This document shows, piece after piece, positions 8,691-64,000 of a stretch of DNA of 64,000 bases; position 1 is the first letter of the stretch; every line of letters begins with the position of its first letter. Made by a program: the position numbers and the translations under genes. The notes under the pieces are model-generated. The model searched no databases and was not told the origin of the DNA. It saw only the letters and a list, made by a program, of their open reading frames with translations. The stretch comes from Octopus sinensis. Its lineage: Eukaryota. The stretch lies in the NCBI RefSeq assembly GCF_006345805.1, contig NC_043000.1, positions 144,150,001-144,214,000 of the forward strand, given 5' to 3'.

Positions 8691-8717
8691 CACGTATATA
8701 TATATATATATATATAT

Positions 8718-8963
8718 TATATTAAATTAGAGACAAAACCACTATTAGGCAAATCATACAATGAAAAACCTAAGCCAATACATAAGATTAATTAATTTAT
8801 ATTATTCAAATATATATCAAAATTATTAAAAAAGATAATTAATTATTGTTTTAAATAATTTTGTTATATATTTAAATAATATAAATTAATTAATCTTATG
8901 TATTGGCTTAAGCTTTTCATTGTATGATTTGCCTAATAGTGGTTTTATCTCTAATTTAATATA
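8718..8963. repeat. Near-perfect spacerless palindrome (123 bp arms) beside a (TA)n tract
   Basis: attaaattagagacaaaaccactattaggcaaatcatacaatgaaaa... mirrored by ...ttttcattgtatgatttgcctaatagtggttttatctctaatttaat; centre at 8840/8841. Confidence 0.9.
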
Positions 8964-9864
8964 GTATAATATTTTACTATAAAATTGGATTCAATCCTAA
9001 ATCTGATTTTTCCCTGTAAGTTTGGATTTATTCCCTAATATTTTATTATTAATTTATATATATATATATATATATAACAATGTAGAGAAAAAGAGTAAGA
9101 CGAAAAAATCGAATATCCAGTTCGTGAAGGATTGGCCATATGAAAGAAAGCAGTTAGGATCATTTCACCGCTTTGGATTTGTGTGCAATTCGCATATATA
9201 TCCTTTTTCGAAGGTGCTTTAGTATCAGAATTCCCTTGCTACAGAAATATTAGCTGTGTTATATTTTGTATGATAATCTGCGTGAAAACACAGCAGGTCT
9301 TCTTTTGAGTTTGGAAGGCAGTGGGTAATAGATAACTGCATTTTAGTCCTTCCTTATAACTCAGCAGGCCATTATTCCTTCTACGTAGGCATTACATAAT
9401 AAGGTTTCAGACTTATATTGTTGTATGTAATTTTCAGTAAGTAAATCTATCTTATTACTGTCCATGGAATTTCGCTTGGATTTGTTCAACTCTCATTTAA
9501 TATTGGCTGGTTCTGTAACTGTATTTATAGCACATATACTAATCGCAAAATTAAGATGAGCTTTATAACGTATTCGAATCTACCAAACTATATTTTCTCA
9601 TTTTCCTTTTCTCATTTTTACATATGGGGCTATTAAAACTGCAGGCAATTATTTGCAGGAAGCAGACTTGTACAGCTACGGTATTAACCACCTCTCTATA
9701 ACTCTACTCATGTACTTTCAGTTGCTGCAATACCTTATCTTGTGTTACTTGTGAAATTGTTTGTCGAACATATTTTACTGAGCAAATTTTCGTTCTCTTT
9801 TACACTACGGTTTGCCTACATTTAAGAAAACTTGTTTTCGAATTTTATTACGTTAAGACGGATA

Positions 9865-11545: not shown

Positions 11546-12009
11546 GCTTCAACTCCGCCAAATAAGGCATAACAAACAAATGTATGAAGAAAGCTCTGTC
11601 TCCAAAATTAAATGATTATCAGGCTCAGTGGACCGGTTTCTGAGTTATGTATATCGACTCTATACCTGAAGTTTATTTGTAAAAGTTTAAAAGGGCAGGT
11701 ATTATGTTATAGGCAGTGGAGCCTGATAGTCTTTTAATTTGCGGGTTGAAGATTTTTTGCATGTTAGTGAGCCATTGGAATATTTTGTTATTTTAATCTC
11801 AGAAAAAAATTATATAGATATTACGGTATTTTACGAATTGCTAAAATCTTTCGTCTGTATATTCTTACTTCACATTCCGCAGGAGTCAACTTTGCCATTT
11901 AGCCTAGCAGGATTGAAAAAGTAAGTACCAGTTAAATACTGGGGTTGATGTATTCGATTATCACCTTCCTTCAATATCTTAGGGCCTTGTGCCTCTAACA
12001 GAAATACTA

Positions 12010-12211
12010 CTTTACTTGTTTCAGTCTTTTGACTGTGGCCATGATGGAGCCAGCCTTTAGTTGAGCAAATCGACTCCAGGACTTATTTTCTTAAGTCTAG
12101 TACTTATTCTATAGGTCTATTTTGCCGAACCACTATCTTAAAGTGACGTAAACACATCAGCATCGGTTGTCAAGTGATGTTGGGGGACAAACACAGACAT
12201 ACACACACACA

Positions 12212-12280
<69 letters not shown>

Positions 12281-12441
12281 CTATACGACGGGCTTCTTTC
12301 AGCTTCCGTCTACCAAATCCACTCACAAGTCTTTGGTCGGCCCGAGGCTATAGTAGAAGACACTTGCCGAAGATGCCACGCAGTGGGACTGAACCCGGAA
12401 CCATGTGGTTGGTAAGCAAGTTGCTTACCACACAGCCACTC
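12010..12441 (-). mobile_element. SINE with an internal (TA)/(TG) microsatellite (family also at 13823 and 35081)
   Basis: Shares cttgtgagtggatttggtagacggaa.ctgaaagaagcccgtcgtat and the tail gactgaaacaagtaaa with the two other copies. Confidence 0.85.
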
Positions 12442-13822
12442 TGTGGTATTAATAGTCACTCTTGCGCCTCTTAATATTTTGTTGTTTATGTTGATAATGG
12501 TGTTGTTATAATAATAATAATTTTTTTATGTACATTTAATGGTAATGTTTCAATTGTTGTATTTTTTTTGTCTTGATTTTGTAAAATACATTTCGTTCCA
12601 TTCATTCATACATTTGATAATGTATTTCTTCACTTATGTTAATTTTCACTTTGTCTTAGCAGATTCAACTTTTTCCGAATATTATACTGACAAAGTACTT
12701 TCTTCAGTTACTGCCATAATCTTCTGAATACTTATGTCGCAACAAATATGATCTATTGCTCTCATTTTGTTTGAGACAGATGGCACTATTCACCTTGAAG
12801 AACTAGTAGTAAATCATCATTGAATCTGTTATTTAGTGTTGTTCCATCGTTCCTCTTATAAAGCTGCATTGAAGAATATTATCTCAAACGTGATTTTAAA
12901 AAATCCAAACTGTACTTAATTAGAAAAAGGAAATATTATCCCCTCCCACGTACACCCAAAACATTTGTGTGTCTTTGTAGTCGATTGCCATCAGCGCACC
13001 CATTCCGAACTACTACCCCCAGCAGCTAACACCACAAGGAAAGCTGTGAAGAATTAAACAGGACAAATAAACTGTCACCAATGACAATAATATCACTAAG
13101 GGTAATTAAAAATTTATACAACATAAGATTAAATAAAACACATTGCTAATGGAACAAAAATTGCAGAAATCAGTCAGCTAGTTTAACAAATAAAACATCA
13201 CTGCTACCACAACTACCACCATTACCACCACTACCACTAAAACCACCGAAAAATATCAGCAGCTAAACCAAAAACAACGACGATGACGGCGACAACGATA
13301 ATAAAAATATATCGCCAAAAATAATTAAAAGATAACAACAATAACAGCTGTCACAAAACAACATTTATAAAAATGTAAAAAAAAAACAATGAGCCTAAAA
13401 AATATCACTAATATTACAAACACCAATAAATCTGCCAATACTCTTCATAAAAATGACACCAATAATACCAACAACATCAGCAACCACGACGACGACGATG
13501 ACAACCTGAATAATTAGTGGAGGCTTTTTTTTAGTATTTTCCGAGATTGTCAGAAATATTTCGATAGCAACAATCAGAGCCAGAACGTTAGCAATTGTCA
13601 ATATTTTTTTTCGAGTATGATTTGCGGTTTAGTATTGTAGGCAGCTGAAATATTATATCCTTAACGGGAATTTTGCTGGCATATAGGGATGGGGCAACTG
13701 CTGCTCTCTGAAAACGAGGAAAAATTTAAAGAATACCTCTACAGTAAATAGAACCAGAGATGTAAAAGTTGATGGTTAAAGGTACTAGAATACTAAAATA
13801 ATTACCACTAACATTTTCACAA

Positions 13823-14027
13823 GGCGTAGACGCGGCTATGTAGTAAGTAGCTTACTTACCAACCACATGGTTCTGTGTTCAGTCTCACTGAGTGGCATCT
13901 TGGGCAAGAGTCTTCTACTATAACCTCGGCCCGACCAAAGCCTTGTGAGTGGATTTGGTAGACGGAAACTGAAAGAAGCCCGTCGTATATATGTATATAT
14001 ATATATATTATATATATATATATATAT

Positions 14028-14068
<41 letters not shown>

Positions 14069-14262
14069 CTGTGTCTGTCCCCCAACATCATTTGACAACC
14101 GACGCTGGTGTGTTTACGTCCCCCTAACTTAGCGGTTCAATGAAAAAGAATCCGATAGAATAAGTACTAGGCTTACAAAGAATAAGTCCTGGGGTCGACT
14201 AAAGGCGGTGCACCATCATGGCCGTAGTCAAATGACTGAAACAAGTAAAAGAGTAAAAGAGT
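13823..14262 (+). mobile_element. SINE with an internal microsatellite and a (gagtaaaa)n tail
   Basis: Full-length copy of the family at 12010-12441 and 35081-35451; tRNA-like head and a cttgggcaag CORE-like segment. Confidence 0.85.
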
Positions 14263-15291
14263 AGCCGATAGCAAAATTATCCAAACGACAAGCTATGTCC
14301 GCCGTAATGCCCAACAAATTTCCTGGGATATCATTACTGAAGTATAGTTAAATATACGAACTATATTCAAGAGAGAATAGGACAAACGTAAATTCTCGTC
14401 TATCACTGATTGATTCTTCCTCATCCGAAAGTATATCTGTCGAAGCTTCATCAAACTGAAACATCTTTAAAGTGATGCCAATGGATGTGTCATTAGCCAG
14501 GGTCTGGACTGTGAAGGCTGTGTCGAGAGAAACTGTCAGGCAATTCGTAATTTCGATGTCTCATTCTCTGAAAAATGGTCGACTAGTAAACTGAATCCAA
14601 GTTTTGGGAACACAAGATATTTTTTTGAATAAGAATCTCATCTGGTGTTTATAACAATAAGTTTCTAAAATATCCTCAATGAATCGCAGCTCAATGCTTA
14701 CCGATAAATCACCGAAAGTTTGACTTTATTACAAACATAACATCTACGCCAATAGTAACAGTACATATTTTTAGTGAAATCAAACTTTCTTTTGAAATTA
14801 TTCACTTCAAGTAATAAATTGTCACTTAAGAGGATTGATACAGGGTGGCACGACCAAAATCAACACAGAAAATGATGAACGTAACATTGGAGAAAAATAT
14901 GAGAGAACTCTTATGAAACTCTCAACTAATATAATTCGAAAACAATGTTGGCAACAATTAAAGCAGCGTCAGAAAATCTAGAGAAACAACAGCGAGAAAG
15001 GCATAAAAAAGACTGCATCTTTACCAAGATATTTAAGAACATCCGATTCAATGGCACAGAAAATATTTAACAACATAATGTAGAGACAACCAACTTAGTT
15101 TAGCCTGCTAAATTTGCAGCTAAATCTATTTTAGATTGTACCAGAAACAGTTGACTGCATACAAATCATAGATCTGATGAATAAGAGCCGAACAGTGACT
15201 GTACACCATCGTCAGCGACAAAAAGTGCAAAAGAAACAGCAAGAGCAAATTTTGCAAGTAGAACATAAAATAGAAAAGCCTAACGAAACGC

Positions 15292-19984: not shown

Positions 19985-20575
19985 ACATACTTTTCTACTC
20001 TAAGCACAAGACCCAATAGTTTTGGAGAGGGTGTCCGTCGATTAGATCGACCCCAATACGCAACTGCTACTTAATTTATCGACATCTAAAGGATGAAAGG
20101 CAAAGTCGACCTCGGTGGAATTTGAACTCAGAACGTAAAGACAAACGAAATACCGCTAAGCATTTCGCCCAGCTTGCTAACGTTTCTGCCAGCTCACCGT
20201 CTTTAAAATTATCCTTTTTACTATAGGCACAAAGCTTGAAATTTCAAGGGAAAGGGGTAAGTCGATTACAGCGACCCCAGTACTCAACTGGTACTTATTT
20301 TATCTACCTCGAAAGGATGAATAGTAAAGTCGACCTCTGCGGAATTTGAACTCAGAACGTAGCGGCAGAAGAAATACCTATTTCTTTACTACCCACAAGG
20401 GGCTAAACACAGAGAGGACAACAAGGACAGACAAAGGAATTAAGTCGATTGTATCGACCCTGAAAGCCTGAAAGGCAAAATCGACCTCGGCGGAATTTGA
20501 ACTCAGAACGTTGCGGCAGACGAAATACCGGTAAGTATTTCGTCCGGCGTCCTAACGATTCTGCTGACTCGCCAC
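19985..20575 (-). mobile_element. Cluster of Meta-domain-type tRNA SINEs (monomer + dimer)
   Basis: Repeated gaaaggatgaaaggcaaagtcgacctcggcggaatttgaactc, the reverse complement of B-box + gaggtcgactttgcctttcatcctttcggggtcgataaattaagtaccag (Meta/MESC-like core). Confidence 0.85.
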
Positions 20576-21495: not shown

Positions 21496-22515
21496 TCATA
21501 CTAAGGAATAGTAGAGTGTAATACAAATACTTCATAAGAGCACTGAACAGTCTTGTGTTTATAACATCGATATGTACAAATAAATGTACATACGCGCTAC
21601 TAAATAAACATAAATAACAATCAGATAAGAAAATTGAATCAAAAACACAAATTAGCAAATACTTAAAATAATCAGTCAACTAAATATTACTTGGTTCAAT
21701 GTAAAATATAAGGAAGAAATATTTTAGACACGATAGATAAATACATAAAATAGCGATAAATTCAACAAATAACGTAACAGCGATTACCATCTTAGTTATA
21801 CCAGTAATAAGTTGTAACTGGTATATTCTCAATTAGAGGATAATCGTATTTAGCAGCGGTAGACAGGAAATCGATATGTGTTGTAATTGCTTGTAGAATT
21901 CAGCATAAAAATTTGTTATGGTAATACGTTTAACAGGCTTTTAGGTAAACAGCATGTTTTTGCAACCAGAAAACTATTGTGAAAATTCTTTTGTAGATTA
22001 TCGAGGATACTGAGTAAACATAATGAAGATTAGAAAAATATAAATACGTAACAAAAATAACTGAAAAGTCTATGGAATGTATTGAAAGAAATGAAAGTAT
22101 TTGAAATAGAGGCTAGAGTAGCAGTGACGTAATGGAAGGATATGTGGATCAAGCTAAAATTGTTCAATTAAAAATGAAAACTAGTTTACCATCAAACAAA
22201 TTAAGGCCAGGTAATGACTCATCAAATCAGAATAAAAAAAACTTACACGGCATTACCTGCAAAATCTGAGCAGTCTCTTGGTAAAATTATATTTCACATC
22301 TTGGTAAGAAGTTCAGTACTCTATGAGCAAGCTGCCTTACATCGACTCAACGTCTGCGCCAGAACAAAAGGTCTGTAAACAGGTGAGAAGTGGTTAAGAT
22401 TACAGTCAACGATACGGTGGAAATATTGTTCTCTCAGCACATATCTGTGTAACATCAGTTATGATATGCCTAGTCATCCACAGAGAGGTTGTTAGCAGCG
22501 CCTGAGAAGTAACGT

Positions 22516-22739
22516 ATTTCTTTATTACCCACAAGGGGCTAAACACAGAGGGGACAAACAAGGACAAAAATAGGTAATAAGTCGATATCATCGACCCCAG
22601 TGCGTAACTGGTACTTAATTTATCGACCCCGAAAGGATGAAAGGCAAAGTCGACCTCGGCGGAATTTGAACTCACAACGTAAAGGCAGACGGAATACGGC
22701 TAGGCATTTCGCCCGGCGTGCCAACGTTTCTGCCAGCTC
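22516..22739 (-). mobile_element. Meta-domain-type SINE with an 18 bp TSD
   Basis: gcgcctgagaagtaacgt at 22498-22515 and 22740-22757; tail ...agccccttgtgggtaataaagaaat. Confidence 0.92.
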
Positions 22740-23415
22740 GCGCCTGAGAAGTAACGTGTCATGTCCTTAGAACGTGGAAGAACAGCCATTCCATTCCGTT
22801 GAGATGCCACCTGGTGAAATGCATGACGTTAACAGAGGCAATGTAATTGTTTGCTACTTCACCTCAATCTTGCAGAAATAGGTTTCACTCGGCCGATTTC
22901 TCATCGGGTTATCAAAACTGCTCGTCACTCTCACCCAGTAATTTTATTTTCACTGGAGATGTGGACTAAATCTGACACCGAGCAATATGACTGATCTGTT
23001 TGATTAGAGCTTTACAACGCTGATGTATGGTATATGTCACATTCAACTGGTACTGGGCTACAAGCACATTAACTTTTCTTGGTTAATTTGTGTTTTTCTC
23101 TCATCCTTGTAGCCCCATAGATCAGTGCTAATCTCAACGTGTCTTGTATGCGCTACTATGGGAACGCAATTCTTCCACATACTGTCTCGCTTGAGATTCC
23201 CCCTGACTCCGTCTAGTTTTCACAATTACTTTTTTAAATAAAAAAAACAAGAAAAGATGTGTGAGTGGACGATCCGAACACATGATGCTAAATGATAAAG
23301 AAACATGTCTATAGAGCCCAACAATCGACCACATGCCATTGTTCGTTGCGGCAATTCAATTGCTAAGACTGGAACGAATTTGACACTGGAGTAAACATCC
23401 ACCAAATATTGATAG

Positions 23416-35509: not shown

Positions 35510-37599
35510 AGTGATTTTCGTAGTGTATATTACAGTCGAGTCTAGGTACTCCTGTTTTTTTTTCTTTCGTTACACCTAACGACGTAGGAACAGGAAATTT
35601 CCTGATACTTATCTAATTTCTAACGTTGTAGGAAGACCACACGTTTTGAACGGGCGTAAGCTGGTCATATATGAATTCATATGTAAATGGTACACCATTA
35701 TATCAACTCTAGAATAATGAAATCCAATGTTTGAAGGGGAAACATTAATCACAATAAATAAATCACTCTAAAAGGAAATTTGCTCACAATATAAACTCGT
35801 TTTCATTAATCTCGACCAGAATATGTCGTTTAAAACTTTAAAGTCGACGATGTACATTCTTAGCATGATATTGAAAAGTCTTGAGGGTTGGAAAAATCAT
35901 TAACGGTTTGGACATAATAGCTAGAGTGATTTATTTATTGTGATTAATGTTTCCCCTTCAAACATTGGATTTCATTATTCTAGAGTTGATATAATGGTGT
36001 ACCATTTACATATGAATTCATATATGACCAGCTTACGCCCGTTCAAAACATGTGGTCTTCCTACAACGTTAGAAATTAGTTTTAGGTCGAATGATAACAT
36101 GATTAAAATATAAACTTAAAAGATACGTTTAATCTATATTTCCGATATGATTAAAACTCATTTATCCTGAGTGTTAAAGAATAGTATGTACTCATAACAT
36201 ATAACAGCAAGATATGAGGCCGTGGAAATATACCTGCTCATACACGTATGATTCATGAATTAGGCGTTATTGCCGATATTTTTCCGGCAGTGAATTACAT
36301 AGCAATGTGAAGTAATACTATTTACATATAGCGATATATATTTAAAGGATTCTATTCGTAAACCACATTACATAATGCTTTTGGTTATTTCTTGATTATA
36401 CAAATATATAGTGAATTTTAGAAGAATGTTAGAAGAGGAGTTTCATATGTAGACCAGTGTAACATTCTTATTTTCAATGTAAATATATTACAAAGAAAGG
36501 ATATTTGATAGCAAAATGTGGGAGAATTGGTAAACACACGTAACTGTAGATATGAAAATATTTCGACATCACATCGAGAATCAGAACTTGAAAGAGAATC
36601 ACATAATTAGAAATTGAGATGATAAATATAAATTATTTGAGCAGGAGAGAAGTAAGCTCTTTTAAAGATTAGTCAATGTATTGTATTGTTAATTTCAGCA
36701 AAACAAGTTTGAAAGTGAGAACGAATTTCCAAACAATGCAATCGCCAAAACAAAAATAGTAAAGGATTTAGGATGCATTATTAAAGCAATTAATTGAAAT
36801 GAGTCTTAAATAAGTACAATCTTATTCACAAAACTATGTTTTGCTGTCTACTGATCAGAAAAAAACAAATACATACTAGCCAGTATTCCAATGTTCGTAT
36901 GGTGCTATCATTATAAAATATATCATTAAAGAAAGTAGGCATTACATGACAGTTTCAGGAACAATGACTGCAAACCTTGACCCACCAAGTGATCACCTTT
37001 TTTCAGCATCTCTTCTCTCGACTCAAGAATACTATTTTCAAAGAGAAGTGACACTGACTCCTTTAATGTCAATATAAGTGTTTAATAGGTGTCCAGAAGC
37101 GAAATCGTCCAAAGTGATCTCCTGGAAAGACATACTTTATATGCAAGTAATCGTTTGATTTGACAAGACACTACACCAATTTTCACTGTGGAGTATGTTT
37201 TATCTAAACGAATTTGTATTATGTCAAACCTCTTGCGAAGGAAGATAAATTGCAGCGTGGTCCAGCTTAACATTGCGAAATAAAATATGAAAAATTGTAA
37301 ATTCATTGGTCGAGGATATGCCTCTACGTAATATTATCCATCAATATCTAAATCCCGGTTCACACCTTCCACAGGGAGGAGATATTTAATTTATGGATAT
37401 TTGCTAAACACATCACAATAAATATGCACTAAAGTCAGGAATAAGATTATCTTGAAGATTTTAAAATAAACTAATAAATATTAATGAAAACGAGTTTATA
37501 TTGTGAGCAAATTTCCTGTTCCTACGTCGTTAGGTGTAACGAAAGAAAAAAAAACAGGAGTACCTAGACTCGACTGTAATATACACTACGAAAATCACT
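35510..37599. mobile_element. ~2.1 kb fold-back/non-autonomous TIR element with ~120 bp near-identical terminal inverted repeats
   Basis: Right arm 37480-37599 is the reverse complement of 35510-35600 plus 35773-35810; no coding remnant recognised inside; no clean TSD. Confidence 0.6.
35613..36079. repeat. 158 bp inverted duplication (35613-35770 versus 35922-36079)
   Basis: I can see only one mismatch between the arms (ccacacg/ccacatg). Confidence 0.92.
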
Positions 37600-39431: not shown

Positions 39432-39488
<57 letters not shown>

Positions 39489-39766
39489 TTCAACAATTGA
39501 GGGTCAAATTAATTAATTATTAATCAATTTCACCAAGTATTCAGTATGTAAAGGGACCATTTAAGGCGAATTCAATTATTACATTATATAAAAGGGCTTA
39601 GTAAAATAAATTACTTTGCCACATACTGAACTCATTAGAAATAGTAGCTAAAAAAACTTTTTTAAAACTATTTCTAATACTTAAAGAAAATCTCTCTCAT
39701 ATAGTGTTTGCTCAATTCAACTCACGAAAGTATGGGGGTAAAGACATTAAAAAATCAAATGCAAAG

Positions 39767-39828
39767 GTTATTTGAGAAAGTACGTTTCAAGATTAGTCAA
39801 CTCGACATTTCTATCATCAGCTCAGAAC
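39767..39828 (-). ncRNA. Hammerhead ribozyme-like motif (degenerate copy)
   Basis: Reverse-complement copy of 40254-40315 with a G->T change in helix III. Confidence 0.45.
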
Positions 39829-40253
39829 TTCTTGGTTTTGATTTGAAAACACTGAAAGTGGGAGCATACCCTTTCGGCTTCTTATACTGAGTTCAGTATG
39901 TGGCAAAGTAATTTATTTTACTAAGCCCTTTTATATAATGTAATAATTTGAATTCGCCTTAAATGGTCCCTTTACATACTGAATACTTGGTGAAATTGAT
40001 TAATAATTAATTAATTTTACCCTCAATTGTTGAAATTATAATTCAGCTCTCTCTATTTAATGCTTCGGATTTTACCGAAAAAGCATAGTGTTTACTGATT
40101 TTAACCCACGCTGGTGGAAAGGGGAGAGCGGAAATTCTTCGCTTGCATATTTTGGGTTTGCTGGCACTGTTAGTTTCGAGCAGATCTTCAGAAGCGATAA
40201 GAAGCCGAAAGGGTATGCTCCCACTTTCAGTGTTTTCAAATCCAAACCAAGGA

Positions 40254-40315
40254 GTTCTGAGCTGATGATAGAAATGTCGAGTTGACTAATCTTGAAACGT
40301 ACGTTCTCAAATAAC
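40254..40315 (+). ncRNA. Type I minimal hammerhead ribozyme-like motif
   Basis: tgag CTGATGA [t-aga-aat-gtc-gagtt-gac-taa-tct-t] GAAA c-gtac-g T T ctca: core boxes, palindromic helix III loop, helix I tgag/ctca; the closing pair of helix II is mismatched. Confidence 0.55.
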
Positions 40316-40496
40316 CTTTGCATTTGATTTTTTAATGTCTTTACCCCCATACTTTCGTGAGTTGAATTGAGCAAACACTATATGAGAGAGATTTTCTTAA
40401 GTATTAGAAATAGTTTTTAAAAAGTTTTTTTAGCTACTATTTCTAATGAGTTCAGTATGTGGCAAAGTAATTTATTTTACTAAGCCCTTTTATATA

Positions 40497-40549
<53 letters not shown>

Positions 40550-41526: not shown

Positions 41527-41943
41527 GAAAAGGCGGCGAGCTGGCAGAAGCGGTACCACACCGGGCGAAATGCTTAGCGGTATTTCGTCTGCGTTACGTT
41601 GTGAGTTCAAATTCCGCCGAGGTCGACTTTGCCTTTCATCCTTTCGGGGTTGATTAAATAAGTACCAGTTACGCGCTGGGGTCGAATTATCAACTTAACC
41701 CTTTTGTCTGTCCTTGTTTGTCTTCTCTGTGTTTAGCCCCTTGTGGGTAGTAAAGAAATAAGTATTTCGTCTGCGTTACGTTGTGAGTTCAAATTCCGCC
41801 GAGGTCGACTTGCCTTTCATCCTTTCGGGGTCGATAAATTAAGTACCAGTTACGCACAGGGGTCGATGTAATCGACTTAATACCTATGTCTGTCCTTGTT
41901 TGTCCCCTCTGTGTTTTAGCCCCTTGTGGGTAGTAAAGAAATA
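41527..41943 (+). mobile_element. Dimeric Meta-domain-type SINE with a 15 bp TSD, nested in the Penelope element
   Basis: ggtatagttcctgta at 41512-41526 and 41944-41958; two tandem cores, the second lacking the start of the tRNA head. Confidence 0.92.
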
Positions 41944-42419
41944 GGTATAGTTCCTGTATTCTTGTATGTACAAGTGTGCACCCACGGTGCTGCCATCGTG
42001 GAAGTTGTTGTTATTGCCAATTTGTTATTATTGTTGCTGCTGTCGTTGTTAATTATGTTGTCGGCATTGTTATAGCCATACATCAATTTTCGTATCTACG
42101 TGTTTGTGTGTGTAAGTTTTCGCTTTGTATGTTGTATCTGTCCATGCCATTTATATACCTTCATTTATTTATTTTATCTATCTCTATATCTCATATTCAT
42201 CAATGGTATGTGACAAATATATTTATATATTTACGTATTTATGTATTTATAAATTTTATTTATATATTTATATATATATCTGTTTCTCATAAATATGACA
42301 CAAATATATTGTGTGTATTACGCTGTGTTTTTTTTTTGTATATTATTTACGATCATTTTCCCTCTCTCTTCTCATCCTTCCTGTCTTTAGTCATGTAGCG
42401 TGGTGGTGGGTGTTACTGT

Positions 42420-49725: not shown

Positions 49726-50346
49726 ATACACAAGGTTTCATTTTTACGAATATTTCTTCAATCACAACTGGTATAACTGAAATATAATCTCATCAGTTGA
49801 ATAAGATGGAGAAAAAATAGATTTAAACTGTTTATAAACATTGAAAACAGTGCCCTAAAAAAAGATTAAATATTATATATGGAAGCGTATTCGCTCATGC
49901 ACCACAATTTTTCTCTCGACCTACAATTATGAAATAGCAATAAAATAGTCTTAAGATTTTGTATGCTTTTCTACATTATAAATGTATGTATTCCACATCA
50001 TATCATTGGTGTTTTCCCACGATAGACGAATCAATCGGAAATATACAAAACTTAGTAGAAGCAGGTAGTATTTGAATAAATTGGTGCAGAACACAAAAGA
50101 CAGTAAATAGTCTGTAACAACATCTTGTAATTGTTTATAATCAGGAGGTTAGATACAAGTGATAGTATATACGGAATTTATTTTTTGCCTTGCGATAAGA
50201 CTTATATTCGCGTCTGCTGTGTTTTTCATATTAGTAAAAAATGTTGGCATACAGAAAAAAAGCTTGTACGATAGAACCCCCATCACCTAATAGTGTTTCC
50301 AATAGAGAAAAATTTGCTTTCATGATGTGTATTTTTTATGGTTTCA

Positions 50347-50745
50347 AAGGCGGCGAGCTGGCAGAAATGTTAGCATGCCGGGCAAAATGCGTAGCCGTAT
50401 TCCGTCTGCGTTATGTTCTGATTTCAGCTATCGCCGGGGTCGACTTTGCCTTTCATCCTTTTGGGTTCGATAAATTAAATACCAGTTACGCACTGGGGTC
50501 GATGTAATCGACTTAATCCGTTTGTTTGTCTTTGTTTGTCTCCACTGTCTGTAGCTCTTTGTGGGTAGTAAAGAAATAGGTATTTCGTTTGCCGCTATGT
50601 TCTGAGTTCAAATTCCACAGAGGTCGACATTGCCTTTCCTTCTTTCGGGGTCGATAAATTAAGTACCAGTTAAGTCCTGGAGTCAATGCATTCGACTATC
50701 TCCCATCCTCGTAATTTCAGGCTTTGTGCCTATAGTAGGAAGGAT
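50347..50745 (+). mobile_element. Dimeric Meta-domain-type SINE
   Basis: aaggcggcgagctggcagaa head, two cores, same dimer junction (aagaaataggtatttcgt) as 41527-41943, alternative tail ttgtgcctatagtag. Confidence 0.85.
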
Positions 50746-55770: not shown

Positions 55771-56039
55771 AACAGAAGGTACAAAAATATAATACATATA
55801 ATATATATATATATAGATATAGCATAATTAAATCTCAGAATGAGATTGAAACAGTAACCGCTCGATAATGTAAAGTATAGAAGCCATCTTATCATGGCTA
55901 ACCACATTGGGGAGGGGGTTGCTACTGTAGCTTTATAGTCCCAAGAGATCTTCGTCTCTAGCTGGCTCTAAACACAATATCTGTGTCTTTGGAGTATTTG
56001 CAAAGGGAGGCCATCCCTTCCTCGCAAGCCTGAGTGATA

Positions 56040-56083
56040 CGCTAGAACTAGTTTCGGGATGGTTGTCCCTCGTCAACGGGCGG
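56040..56083 (-). ncRNA. Type I minimal hammerhead ribozyme-like motif
   Basis: Minus: cgcccg TTGACGA ggga-caacca-tccc GAAA ctag T T ctagcg; G-C-closed helix II and palindromic CUAG loop; C3 is U. Confidence 0.6.
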
Positions 56084-56546
56084 TAACCACCAGGTAGCGA
56101 TGAAAGTGAAGGCTCCTTTGCAAATAGATATAAGTTTTTCTAATGGCGTCTGCCACTGATGTCGAAAAACGAACGGTAAGCATAATTAAATCTCAGAATG
56201 AGATTGAAACAGTAATCGGTCGATAATGTAAAGTATAGAAGCCATCTTATCATAGGGATGGCCTCCCTTTGCAAATACTCCAAGGACACGGATATTGTGT
56301 CTAAAGCCACCTTGAGACGAAGATCTCTTGGGGCTATAAAGCTACAGTAACACGCCCTCCCCAATGTGGTTAGCCATGATAAGATGGCTTCTATACTTTA
56401 CATTATCGATCGATTACTGTTTCAATCTCATTCTGAGATATAATTAAGCTTACTGTTCGTTTTTCGACATCAGTGACAGACGCCATTAGAAAAACTTATA
56501 TCTATTTGCAAAGGAGCCTTCACTTTCATCGCTACCTGGTGGTTAC

Positions 56547-56589
56547 CGCCCGTTCACGAGGGACAACAATCCCGAAACTAGTTCGAGCG
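56547..56589 (+). ncRNA. Second copy of the hammerhead-like motif (core mutated to TTCACGA)
   Basis: cgcccg ttcacga ggga-caacaa-tccc gaaa ctag tt cgagcg. Confidence 0.5.
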
Positions 56590-57179
56590 TATCACTCAGG
56601 CTTGCGAGGAAGGGATGGCCTCCCTTTGCAAATATCAAAGACACAGATATTGTGTTTAGAGCCAGTTAGAGACGAAGATCTCTTGGGGCTATAAAGCTAC
56701 AGTAATACCCCCTCCCCAATGTGGTTAGCCATGATAAGATGGTTCTATACTTTACATATATAATAATATATATATATATATAATATATATATATACATAT
56801 TATATATATATATGCATATAATATATATAATATATAAAATATATAATATATATATATATAATGTATATATATATATCATATATATATTAAATACATATAA
56901 TATTATAAATAGATAAGTGTATTTTTACCTGTTAACAATTAACACGGAAAAAATAAATAAATAGTTACCAGGGTAGAAAAAATCTCACAAGTAAAGATGT
57001 TGTAACCTTGTTTATAAGGTAGAAACTTCGTGTTTACGTTGAATATATTCTGAATAATATATGAATAAATAAATGGAGTTAACGCAGGCGTAATCAAATA
57101 TTTTTAGTTTCGACACATGTTTCGAAAATTCCACTTAAACTCCATTTATTTATTTATATATATAATATATATAATATAT

Positions 57180-60800: not shown

Positions 60801-61137
60801 GTACATCAAAGGGCACCAATTTGTTAATAGAATGAACTGGTTGCTGACTAAATCTATTTTTCTCCATACTTTCGTCTATGAACACATCTTTTATGGTTCA
60901 TACCTGGAGGATTATTCATCAATTTGCTTTCGCACGAAATATTTGGGGAGTTTAAATTTATTCATCTCTTTCGTCGAAGTAAAACGATTCTTTGATATGT
61001 TGTTGATCATACACATATTAGCGGAAAATAACACAATTATTACATTTGTTATGGACTTATTTCCAATTATTGACTAGTATTAAAGAGAAGTCTAGTATCG
61101 AAAAAAGAAGAAACGAATTTTCTGGCTATTGATGGGG

Positions 61138-61270
61138 CACGGAATGTGTGCCTATAGCCAGCTGGAGGAGACATTCTCCTGGGGCTACAAGCTACAGTAA
61201 CACCCACCCTCAGTGGTTAGCCATATTGAGATGGCAAATATACCTCACATTGTCATGCAGTCCCTGTTTA
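61138..61270 (+). mobile_element. Diverged fragment of the 55821-56757 family
   Basis: ctggggctacaagctacagtaacacccaccctcagtggttagccatattgagatgg versus ttggggctataaagctacagtaataccccctccccaatgtggttagccatgataagatgg. Confidence 0.7.
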
Positions 61271-61295
61271 TACCCTGTTTAGAGATTTATTATTG

Positions 61296-61341
<46 letters not shown>

Positions 61342-61526: not shown

Positions 61527-64000
61527 CTCAATGCACAAGGTGTCAGCCCTTCCATCAATGCACAAAAATGGAAGGTCCATTCATTGAAGACTGGGTTGGT
61601 AACCATTCACACCACATCCCTTTCTTCATTCTCACTGAGACCCACCTTGACAACTCCCACTTGGAAGCCGAAGTGAGAGTGAAGAATTTCACAACCATCC
61701 GCGCGGATCGTATCGGCAGGAGGAAGGGTGGAACTGCCATTTTCCTGCATGATTCATTTGCGGCAGATGGAAATAGTATATTCTCCAACGGCTACTGTGA
61801 ATCGGTCACCGTGCACAACAAAGCCAATGACCTGACAGTAATTGGGCTCTATAGGCCGCCCCAAACACCCATACTGTGCTTTAAAGAATGCCTCAACATC
61901 ATTAAGTGCTTTATTCAACAGTGCCATGCTAGCAACATACTCATGATGGGAGACTCCAATCTACCCTGTGTTGACTGGACTACAAACTGTTTGAAACCAA
62001 GCACCCCCGCCTCAACCGCTGACAAAGAAGCAGCAGAGTCACTTTTCGACTTTACGAATGAGTTTTTCTTGTCCCAACTTGGCCTTGCACCAACAAGACA
62101 TCAGAACATTTTGGACCTAGTGTTTAGTAACCACACTAACACTATACATAACGTTACAGTGGAAAAAACCCTTCTTTCAGACCATGACATGGTTCTCTGT
62201 AACATGAAATTCCACCAGCCGAAAGCTAATCCTAGTGACCTCCCTCCAGCCCACCCATTTGACAACATGGATCTCCATAATGCCAACTGGGATGCAATCA
62301 GGAACGAGCTATCACATGTTGACTGGTCCTTTACACATACACACATCTCCACCAACCATAAAACATCTTGGCAGATCTTTGTAGACACCGTCACAGACAT
62401 ATGTGCAAAACACTCCCCACCAAGACCTGTGAACAAAAAGTGCAGAATCCCCCAAAACAGAAAAACCATTATCAGAAAAATAAAAAGAACAAACAAAAAA
62501 ATTAACAAACTAAAGTACTGCCAACAGCAACACACACATTCGACGGCTATCGCACTGCTTGAATCCAAAAAATATAACCTCCAACAATGCATGAAGACCC
62601 TCATCAATAACCAAAGATCAGCTGAGGAGAAGTGGGCCATTGAAAAAATCAAACTCAACCCTAAAGTGTTCTTTTCATTTGCGAGGAAACGCAGGGTCAC
62701 TGTCTCCATTGTTGGCCCTCTAATTGACGAAACTGGCACTCTCCAAGATAATGCCAAATCCATGGCCGAGATACTGCAGAAACAATACTGCTCTGTTTTC
62801 AGCAATCCTGATATGGCCGATCTGGGCTGTATCAGTGATGTCAACCCCCAACACACTATATCGGACATAACGTTTAGTGCCCCTGATGTCTTAGCGGCGA
62901 TAAACGAAATAAAACACAATTCAGCAGTAGGCCCCGATAGGTTCCCTGCTTGTGTCCTGAAGGTGTGTCGACACTAACTTGCATCTCCCCTTGCTAATCT
63001 GTGGAGAAACTCACTGGATGCTGGCTATATTCCAAAAAACCTTCTGTCCCAGTCTGTTGTCCCAGTTTTCAAAAAGGGAAACAAGTCCCTTGCAGTGAAC
63101 TACCGTCCGATCTCACTCACCTCTCATATCATCAAGGTATTTGAGAGGGTGGTGAGATCTCGAATAACCCAATTTCTGGAAAACAACAGACGGCTGATCT
63201 CCAACCAACATGGCTTCCGTAATGGAAGGGACTGCATAGCGCAGCTCCTGCATCATTTTGATGACATTTTGAGAGCTTTGGGAGAGGGCTCCAACACCGA
63301 TGTCATCTACCTTGATTTCAGTAAGGCCTTTGACAGGGTCGATCACAAGATTCTATTGAAAAAACTATCCAACGTTGGTGTCTCTGACAGACAGATCTCA
63401 ACATGTTGTAGTTGAAGGGGTAAAATCAAGCCCAGCCAAAGTCAGTAGTGGCGTTCCGCAAGACACTGTGCTGGGCCCACTTCTGTTCATCATTTACATT
63501 AATGACATTAATGACATCATCAAGCACAGCAACATAAAAATTTTTGCAGATGATTCCAAGCTACAGAAGGTCATAAATGAGGCGAGTGACCGGACATGCC
63601 TTCAGTCAGATCTACTGGCTGTTATCCAATGGGCAGAAAACAATAATATGTTGCTGAACGAGGATAAATTTGAGTTAATCCACTTTCGAAAAGAGGATGC
63701 CCTGGAACTCCCATACTCCCTTCAGGTGAAACTCTCGCGGCGTCCAACAACATCAGAGACTTGGGAGTAATTGTGGACAACAACATAAGCTGGGCCACTC
63801 ATATAAACACCAAAGTTGACATGGCCCGCAGAATGTGTTCCTGGATTCTCAGAACTTTCCAGTCGAGAGATATCCACACCATTATCCTTCTCTTCTCCAC
63901 TTTTGCCCGACCCCACCTTGAATACTGTTGTCCACTGTGGTCTCCCCACACAATACAAGGTATCAAAAAAGTTGAAGCACTTCAAAGGGCAATCACAAAA
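61526..64000 (+). mobile_element. CR1-type LINE ORF2 (APE endonuclease + RT), pseudogenised, continues beyond the window
   Basis: LNAQG, LTETHL, RADRIGRRKGG, LYRPP, MGDSNLP, ILDLVF, LSDHDMV (APE); NYRPISLTS, QHGFR, YLDFSKAFDRVDH, SGVPQ.TVLGPLLF, IFADD (RT). Stop at 62975-62977; frameshifts near 63380 and 63720. Confidence 0.93.

Follow-up and report, generated by a model that had tools for sequence, protein, structure and literature searches.

The stretch of DNA analysed here, 64,000 nucleotides long and called the window below, contains a short repeat in two inverted arms, each longer than one repeat unit and with TA-rich DNA outside. What kind of element leaves such a structure, how was it copied into this position, and from which template? 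For animal retrozymes both transcription and the mobilising enzyme are open questions in the literature covered. We consider it probable that a non-coding hammerhead repeat of 357–358 bp inserted here in two arms, copied in trans by the machinery of a Penelope-like element (PLE) from an RNA that would start at an internal snRNA-type promoter and be circularised by its own ribozyme.

Anatomy of the locus and its hammerhead motif

Positions within the repeat are given as phase, i.e. the window position minus 56253, modulo 357. The labels A–E for unit families and LINE1–3 were coined in this analysis. The features of the locus are the following:

55821–56253, minus strand: left arm, 433 bp, 1.21 units, phase 123 to 197, ending at the distal fixed terminus
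56254–56757, plus strand: right arm, 1.41–1.42 units, phase 1 to 150, ending at the proximal fixed terminus
56253/56254, no strand: inversion junction at which the truncated arms meet 5' to 5'
55821–55864, minus strand: 44-nt "tail", phase 154–197, on the left end of the insertion and missing from the right
55787–55820, no strand: (TA)n-rich left flank
56756–56915, no strand: (TA)n right flank
56469–56474, plus strand: ATCAGT box 59 nt ahead of the predicted start, likely the core of an snRNA-type proximal sequence element
56155–56160, minus strand: ATCAGT box of the left arm
56528, plus strand: predicted transcription start of the right arm (ATCGC, phase 275)
56101, minus strand: predicted transcription start of the left arm
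56524–56540, plus strand: LINE target site of the right arm, empty; 17–18 bp are duplicated upon insertion elsewhere
56089–56105, minus strand: LINE target site of the left arm, empty
56547–56589, plus strand: type I hammerhead motif, right copy, with a private G5>C at 56555 and a predicted cut at 56583/56584
56040–56082, minus strand: type I hammerhead motif, left copy, with the family core (U3, G8, GUU) and a helix I change at 56044
61135–61298, plus strand: 3' fragment of 164 bp, standing alone, from sister family B (unit of 352 bp), with the distal terminus followed by (TA)n

The repeat period is 357–358 bp and the two arms are 95.6% alike. The layout agrees with a previous sequence-only reading, which had described a minus-strand arm of about 1.2 units meeting a plus-strand arm of about 1.4 units at 56253/56254, (TA)n on either side, no open reading frame, and a diverged relative near 61138–61270. 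The relative extends slightly further and is too short to contain a hammerhead. Among ORFs longer than 74 codons, the only one to overlap the element is a frame of 82 codons, most of which lies outside it. The unit shares with non-LTR retrozymes that it is a short non-coding tandem repeat with many dispersed copies (1681 candidates in a search of the 2.72 Gb genome, 40 of them scored).

Each arm carries one hammerhead-like motif with a GGGA/UCCC helix II and a CUAG loop, as had been read from the sequence. Rfam gave no match in the window at the gathering score; two family copies reached 31.2 bits on Hammerhead_HH9, under the cut-off of 52. When 280 nt of the left arm were folded, the z-score was -1.18 and the minimum-energy structure contained helix II without helix I, so that folding energy gives no support for a hammerhead. 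Covariation does. Among 13 alignable motifs picked by hand from families A–E, which share a type I fold with helices I–III and one motif per unit, 92.9% of cells are paired against 25–47% in slid controls, and 11 of the 14 pairs changed two-sidedly; because the structure was written from these same, related sequences, the shuffle counts are not probabilities. The pair between positions 3 and 8 is C-G in three motifs, U-A in five and U-G in five.

The sequence-only reading held that both copies in the window have core substitutions, and expected the family consensus to be CUGACGA or to show a conserved U3. In 46 sampled units of family A we found U3 46 times, G5 44 times and G8 43 times, together with a GUU triplet. 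U3 is therefore the family state, and the idea of a decayed U3 was rejected; only the right copy is privately broken, while the left one retains the family core. Set against the canonical CUGANGA/GAAA/NUH, the core reads CUGAUGA with GUC in family B, and has U3-G8 with GUU in family A. A U3-A8 pair is documented in hammerheads, but the parts of the two papers covered here (PMC4209133, PMC3088659) hold no documented test of U3-G8, and cleavage in family A may therefore be weak. Cleavage is likely to form part of the cycle: by analogy with other retrozymes, transcripts with at least two hammerheads would undergo cleavage at phase 330/331, and ligation would then close the monomer into a circle. 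With one motif per arm, the window locus lacks the two consecutive complete hammerhead units that Li et al. call "active"; two cuts could not free a monomer from it, and it has probably come to a dead end. Other copies of the family do have two consecutive complete units (e.g. L006, L008, L011). Of nine Xenopus retrozymes one cleaved in vitro (Li et al. 2026, bioRxiv 10.64898/2026.07.22.740005), and the PLE of anole inserts without need of hammerhead cleavage and gave no reads ending at the cut (PMC11167929).

Further hammerhead families were found, as the sequence-only reading had suspected when it spoke of a multi-family system. An A-like subfamily (L217, L227, L233; 88–90% alike) has U3-A8 and GUC, so the U3-G8/GUU core of family A may be derived. 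Families D (L246, L250, L268) and E (L249, L255, L263, L265), located past position ~1700 of these loci, are TA-ended and have hairpins in common with A and B; the core of D is U3-A8, and in E position 4 is often C (CCGAYGA).

Two fixed 3' ends and the template that was copied

The ends of family A copies were analysed in two samples. For sample 1 the genome was searched with one unit (of the 1681 candidates and 40 scored, 30 loci were taken, and 3 of these were left out as overlaps of the same arrays). For sample 2 the query was phase 77–157 (1055 candidates, 40 scored, 30 taken, 2 duplicates dropped). Both samples consist of top-scoring copies and are no census; combined they comprise 55 loci with 89 arms. 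In 78 of the 89 arms the 3' end coincides with either of two sites separated by 44 nt, the proximal one at phase 146–157 (n=35) and the distal one at phase 190–204 (n=43), windows which together span 27 of 357 phases. Three of the remaining 11 arms end at LINE junctions. The earlier claim that there is no fixed terminus was thus mistaken: only the 5' ends vary. They are scattered, with no pile-up at the hammerhead cut. In sample 2, 7 of 43 arm 5' ends fall at phase 265–273 (window 56518–56526), two of them at recognised LINE junctions; such ends could represent run-off of reverse transcription at the 5' end of the RNA, or breaks at the LINE nick.

The two-armed inverted layout is present in 31 of the 55 loci, on many chromosomes. 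Nine of these have one non-canonical end. The other 22 have two canonical ends, and in all 22 one end is proximal and the other distal, as in the window, where the right arm ends proximally and the left arm distally. The 13 pairs of sample 2 are conditioned on one distal end, because its query favours distal-ended arms; in sample 1 by itself all nine pairs follow the rule. Family B, which is identical to family A in 239 of 361 alignment columns, behaves in the same way: across 25 loci canonical ends were found in 28 of 32 arms, and four of four pairs have one of each. TA repeats are located within 20 nt of 41 of the 78 canonical ends compared with 7% of distal flank windows, leaving roughly half of the ends without adjoining (TA)n.

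In vitro the reverse transcriptase of the anole PLE begins at two internal sites, and their spacing corresponds to the genomic "tail" (PMC11167929). Tails, inverted 5'-truncated copies and a bias for (TA)n are described as PLE traits in the part of Craig et al. (2021, bioRxiv 2021.04.23.441226) covered here, and all of them recur in the unit. One proximal and one distal end in each two-armed insertion is the Penelope-like "tail" signature. From the one-of-each rule we infer that each broken DNA end takes a different start site. Of the earlier proposal that both ends of a TA break are primed, the two-ended break and the bias for TA or AT-rich DNA stand; priming at random phases was rejected since the 3' ends are fixed at two internal sites. 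Priming at the ribozyme cut was rejected as well, phase 330/331 being far from both 3' ends. In the mechanism that we propose, a Penelope-type protein with reverse transcriptase and GIY-YIG domains, the likely enzyme, would break AT-rich or (TA)n DNA; priming would take place at phase ~153 on one DNA end and at ~197 on its counterpart, in keeping with the observed ends and their pairing, and the two cDNAs would stop at scattered points before being joined head to head, which is the structure seen. In this retrozyme, such a pair of ends is a fingerprint that Penelope-type priming left directly in the genome, and it suggests why the tail of PLEs occurs at one end only.

As to the form of RNA that was copied, pure arrays reach 3.9 units in family A and 5.4 in family B, and no seam is visible where they pass through phases 275 and 331. 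At 37 informative sites mismatches amount to 7.1% between laps, 6.5% between the arms of a locus and 17.3% between loci. The shared haplotype of laps and arms fits a circle or a homogeneous multimer. Circular retrozyme RNAs have been shown for coral, mussel and axolotl (PMC7229834, in the part covered), and by analogy a circular template would fit family A too. Parts of the unit are matched by contigs from four presumed RNA runs; start, strand, level and circularity are not readable from them, so that they weigh on neither side.

It is possible, though on balance we doubt it, that the same PLE-mobilised element was copied from linear templates, either uncut multimers or through jumps of the reverse transcriptase, with no circle and with a slow or idle hammerhead. 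Two loci point in this direction, the right arm of the window and L005, in which the haplotype switches between laps. In the window the first lap of the right arm differs from the last, so that one monomer circle cannot have produced this arm; mixed dimers, however, could be circular too. The clustering of 5' ends at phase 265–273 near the predicted start, with none piled up at the cut, likewise suggests that some templates may be linear, the U3-G8/GUU core agrees with a slow ribozyme, and unprocessed RNA was the main substrate of the anole PLE in vitro (PMC11167929). On the other hand the hammerhead pairs covary across families, retrozyme circles do exist in the three animals named, and most copies are shorter than two units, yet new arms often exceed one unit and are seamless.

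No Penelope ORF is attached to the unit in any of the 55 loci, which makes it a non-autonomous animal retrozyme. The sequence-only reading had itself named an alternative, in which the unit is no more than a terminal repeat belonging to an ORF-containing Penelope element. In that case the unit would be the pseudo-LTR of an autonomous PLE and its copies 5'-truncated insertions. The tail, the inverted arms and the hammerhead are all PLE traits, retrozymes have been linked to PLE terminal repeats, and those of Xenopus resemble pLTRs (Li et al. 2026, bioRxiv 10.64898/2026.07.22.740005). We nevertheless regard this explanation as improbable. The sole long neighbour shared by unit arms in the 55 loci is a LINE with target duplication and not a PLE, arrays of 3.9–5.4 units are unmixed, and the unit was found downstream of none of the 30 GIY-YIG loci examined, of 5029 candidates. 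ORFs with a C-terminal GIY-YIG domain are themselves abundant in this genome (147 matches among 150 scored of the 5029 candidates; 762–883 codons). One unit match of 74% upstream of a GIY-YIG ORF (L145) was judged a separate insertion. Among the PLEs one abundant family, which we take to be Neptune-like, has a CxxxxCxxC linker and carries in its 3' flanks a TTGATAA (U3-A8) hammerhead-like motif shortly ahead of a TA-flanked end (L126, L135, L138–L141, L146–L148). It is a candidate partner of the unit, with which it shares no sequence match.

A promoter-like box and LINE insertions at the unit

Both arms of the window contain the hexamer ATCAGT at -59 from ATCG. Upstream of snRNA genes the same hexamer is located at -57 to -61, both in 15 of 15 U1 loci and in 19 of 19 U2 loci whose upstream DNA is native and which form three divergent groups; these 34 loci are paralogues with about five independent flank groups, and the motif was derived from the U1 and U2 flanks here and is not a published consensus. 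ATSAGT occurs 66 times in the 128,000 strand positions of the window, so the chance of finding it in a given 7-nt span is ~0.4%. In family B the box is kept as a 9-nt block amid an otherwise variable stretch, and in family E it lies 55–57 nt ahead of the insertion start at five of five informative sites; the sole family D site seen has a variant box only. A second box is placed at -87 in the unit as opposed to -89 to -94 in most snRNA loci. A 3' box was not clear by eye.

Since box and spacing are those of 34 of 34 U1 and U2 loci, the unit is likely to carry an internal promoter of snRNA type, as predicted from a 6-nt box and its distance. RNA polymerase II would start at phase 275, 59 nt behind the box. 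The predicted first 12 nt of unit A (window 56528–56539) match the first 6 nt of U2 and have TACCTGG in common with the 5' end of U1; family B is without the U1-like part, and this likeness may be due to chance. Newt satellite 2, likewise a tandem repeat with a hammerhead, is reported to have an internal Pol II promoter of snRNA type (Coats, Zhang and Epstein 1994, as cited in PMC2220036). The newt promoter is reported there as tested, while that of the unit is placed by position and in an invertebrate genome.

Some arms run into shared non-unit sequence, and through these we reached a 5.5-kb element with two ORFs, LINE1. It has the domains PF03372 (APE), PF00078 (RT) and PF13966 (C-terminal zinc finger) and weakly PF00098 (ORF1 zinc knuckle), is nearer to L1 ORF2p (1e-38) than to R2 (1e-23), and by its sequence likely belongs to the Tx1 clade. 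A search with its 3' end gave 200 candidates, of which 40 were scored and 30 taken. The 3' flank was unit A from phase 271 in 20 copies, the equivalent site of B-like units in 3, the duplication of phase 271–288 followed by another LINE in 5, a full U2 gene (183.6 bits) in 1, and nine target bases followed by other sequence in 1. Altogether 28 of the 30 copies are located at retrozyme sites; eight of the 30 come from the loci of the LINE's discovery, and of the other 22, 20 are at such sites. Among 20 upstream junctions 19 belong to full-length copies, 18 of which follow unit sequence ending at the duplication and one U2 upstream DNA; one copy is truncated. Target duplications are 17–18 bp long and keep locus-specific variants on both sides.

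Two further elements share this preference. LINE2 is 83% alike to LINE1, and 29 of 30 copies (taken of 204 candidates) are at such sites: 26 in A- or B-like units by BLAST and, by eye, two in family E and one at a tandem junction; one flank was unrelated. LINE3, a 1.6-kb element with ORF1 only, is found at hammerhead units in 19 of 30 copies (of 203 candidates), 14 of these by eye. Five of them are A- or B-like and 14 belong to the two further families D and E, both assigned by eye; one more copy is located at a U2 start, and 10 have no recognisable target. Of 20 regions taken for LINE 5' junctions in other unit families, eight are without target duplication, and upstream unit sequence is present only at five sites of family E and one of family D. 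By Kojima's criterion (more than 20% of flanks of one type) LINE1, LINE2 and LINE3 are all target-specific. LINEs of the L1/Tx1 type thus insert at the predicted start of family A and its sister families. In the window the target site is intact and empty in both arms.

LINE-type insertions at U2 5' starts were seen twice (G000:C3:19724800-19731582, with L111 and L087, and C7:27337300-27340800, with L245 and L284), and they stem from two different LINE families. Among the loci taken an insertion lies directly upstream in 1 of 20 U2 loci and 0 of 15 U1 loci. The U2 target spans about -4 to +11, and the nick register is -4 at both U2 and the ATCG of the unit. The U2-inserted LINE1 consists, from 5' to 3', of the U2 promoter, the duplication of the U2 start, 13–14 nt of unit A beginning at phase 274–275, and the LINE. 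In this single case, reading from the sequence, the piece of unit A marks a putative RNA 5' end at phase 274–275, acquired through co-transcription or a template jump. The LINEs likely borrow the unit's promoter, and may use its ribozyme as well. The 3' A-run of LINE1 copies L069–L098 is constant at 4 nt; for a LINE this is unusual, as is the count of 19 full-length copies in 20, and both would agree with transcripts reading through into the target.

Tentatively, we suggest that this LINE lineage homes to snRNA-type starts, guided at least in part by the promoter complex and not by local sequence alone, and moved from U2 genes to a large superfamily of hammerhead retrozymes with promoters of this kind, forming a three-tier chain of parasites. 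If true, the RNA of the LINE would begin at the host start and end at the host hammerhead cut ~60 nt beyond the LINE 3' end, and the LINE would take promoter and ribozyme from a non-autonomous element which itself depends on Penelope-like elements. The unit family offers a placed promoter candidate, together with a young LINE family inserting almost only at one base position of a mobile ribozyme repeat and of U2 starts. Tools for targeted insertion are a further reason for interest in a site-specific LINE whose copies are mostly full length.

The tight association of LINE and unit, and a 5'-truncated LINE (L100) with unit sequence only downstream, might suggest that the unit is a SINE-like passenger of the LINE or that both move as one composite. 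This is very improbable, as the LINE lies inside the unit between duplications of 17–18 bp that retain the variants of the locus, the same LINE is found in different unit families and in U2, the unit ends without a LINE tail or A-run, and LINE copies are mostly 98–99% alike compared with 3.7% divergence between unit loci. A local inverted duplication, or an artefact of assembly, can be practically dismissed as the source of the two-armed shape: palindromes in TA-rich DNA are prone to mis-assembly, but there is a 4.4% difference between the arms, their fixed ends are not the same, and the layout recurs in the 31 loci.

Relation to known systems and other repeats in the window

Metazoan non-LTR retrozymes, as far as described in the parts of PMC7229834 and of bioRxiv 10.64898/2026.07.22.740005 covered here, share with the unit the non-coding tandem repeat (150–450 bp; 350–390 in mussel), one type I hammerhead per unit, a weak palindromic helix III, dispersed copies and a proposed dependence on PLEs. 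Unlike in those descriptions, the unit has two fixed 3' ends, two-armed insertions, a family-wide U3-G8/GUU core and a promoter-like box, and it is known from genomic sequence. In the literature searched we found no report of a cephalopod retrozyme. PLEs (PMC11167929; part of bioRxiv 2021.04.23.441226) have in common with the unit the tail-separated termini, the inverted 5'-truncated arm, the AT-rich or (TA)n targets and a hammerhead away from the start of reverse transcription; the unit differs by having no ORF and a tail of 44 nt, against 30–40 in PLEs. Newt satellite 2 shares the hammerhead tandem repeat and the internal snRNA-type promoter.

The LINEs resemble Tx1, Keno and Tx1-Mar in having two ORFs, an APE endonuclease and an L1-like RT, in using a fixed site within a target of many copies, and in showing tandem insertions and occasional snRNA-derived 5' pieces. 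Keno inserts inside U2, at a site ~37 nt into the gene, whereas the LINEs here insert at the U2 start. For Tx1 elements the known targets include transposons and U2, and transcription borrowed from the target has been raised (Kojima 2015, PMC4494074; further elements in the part of PMC4640811 covered). Unlike these, the LINEs described here have as target the predicted start of a hammerhead retrozyme, in families with unlike local sequence, in addition to U2 at -4 to +11. The literature covered, including parts of PMC4640811 and PMC8869645, describes no hammerhead retrozyme as the target of a LINE; such a case could already be recorded in supplementary files or in the target notes of Repbase.

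Several other repeats are present in the window. At 39482–40501 lies a copy of a young tandem family of 559–560 bp (1572 candidates, 98–99% alike), which is also inverted and has TA tracts on its two sides. Inspection by eye shows a hammerhead-like motif with canonical CTGATGA...GAAA near 40262–40310 (plus strand) and no ATCAGT at the snRNA distance. More inverted or two-armed repeats, some near TA tracts, are found at 35613–36079, 12005–14266 and 8708–8972 and may be PLE-type insertions. A 182-bp SINE-like repeat, presumably resembling a known octopus SINE, occurs in partial tandem copies at 41529–41948, 20037–20573, 22512–22745 and 50342–50745. Past the TA tract, the GC-richer stretch at 61530–64000 reads like the endonuclease region of another LINE.
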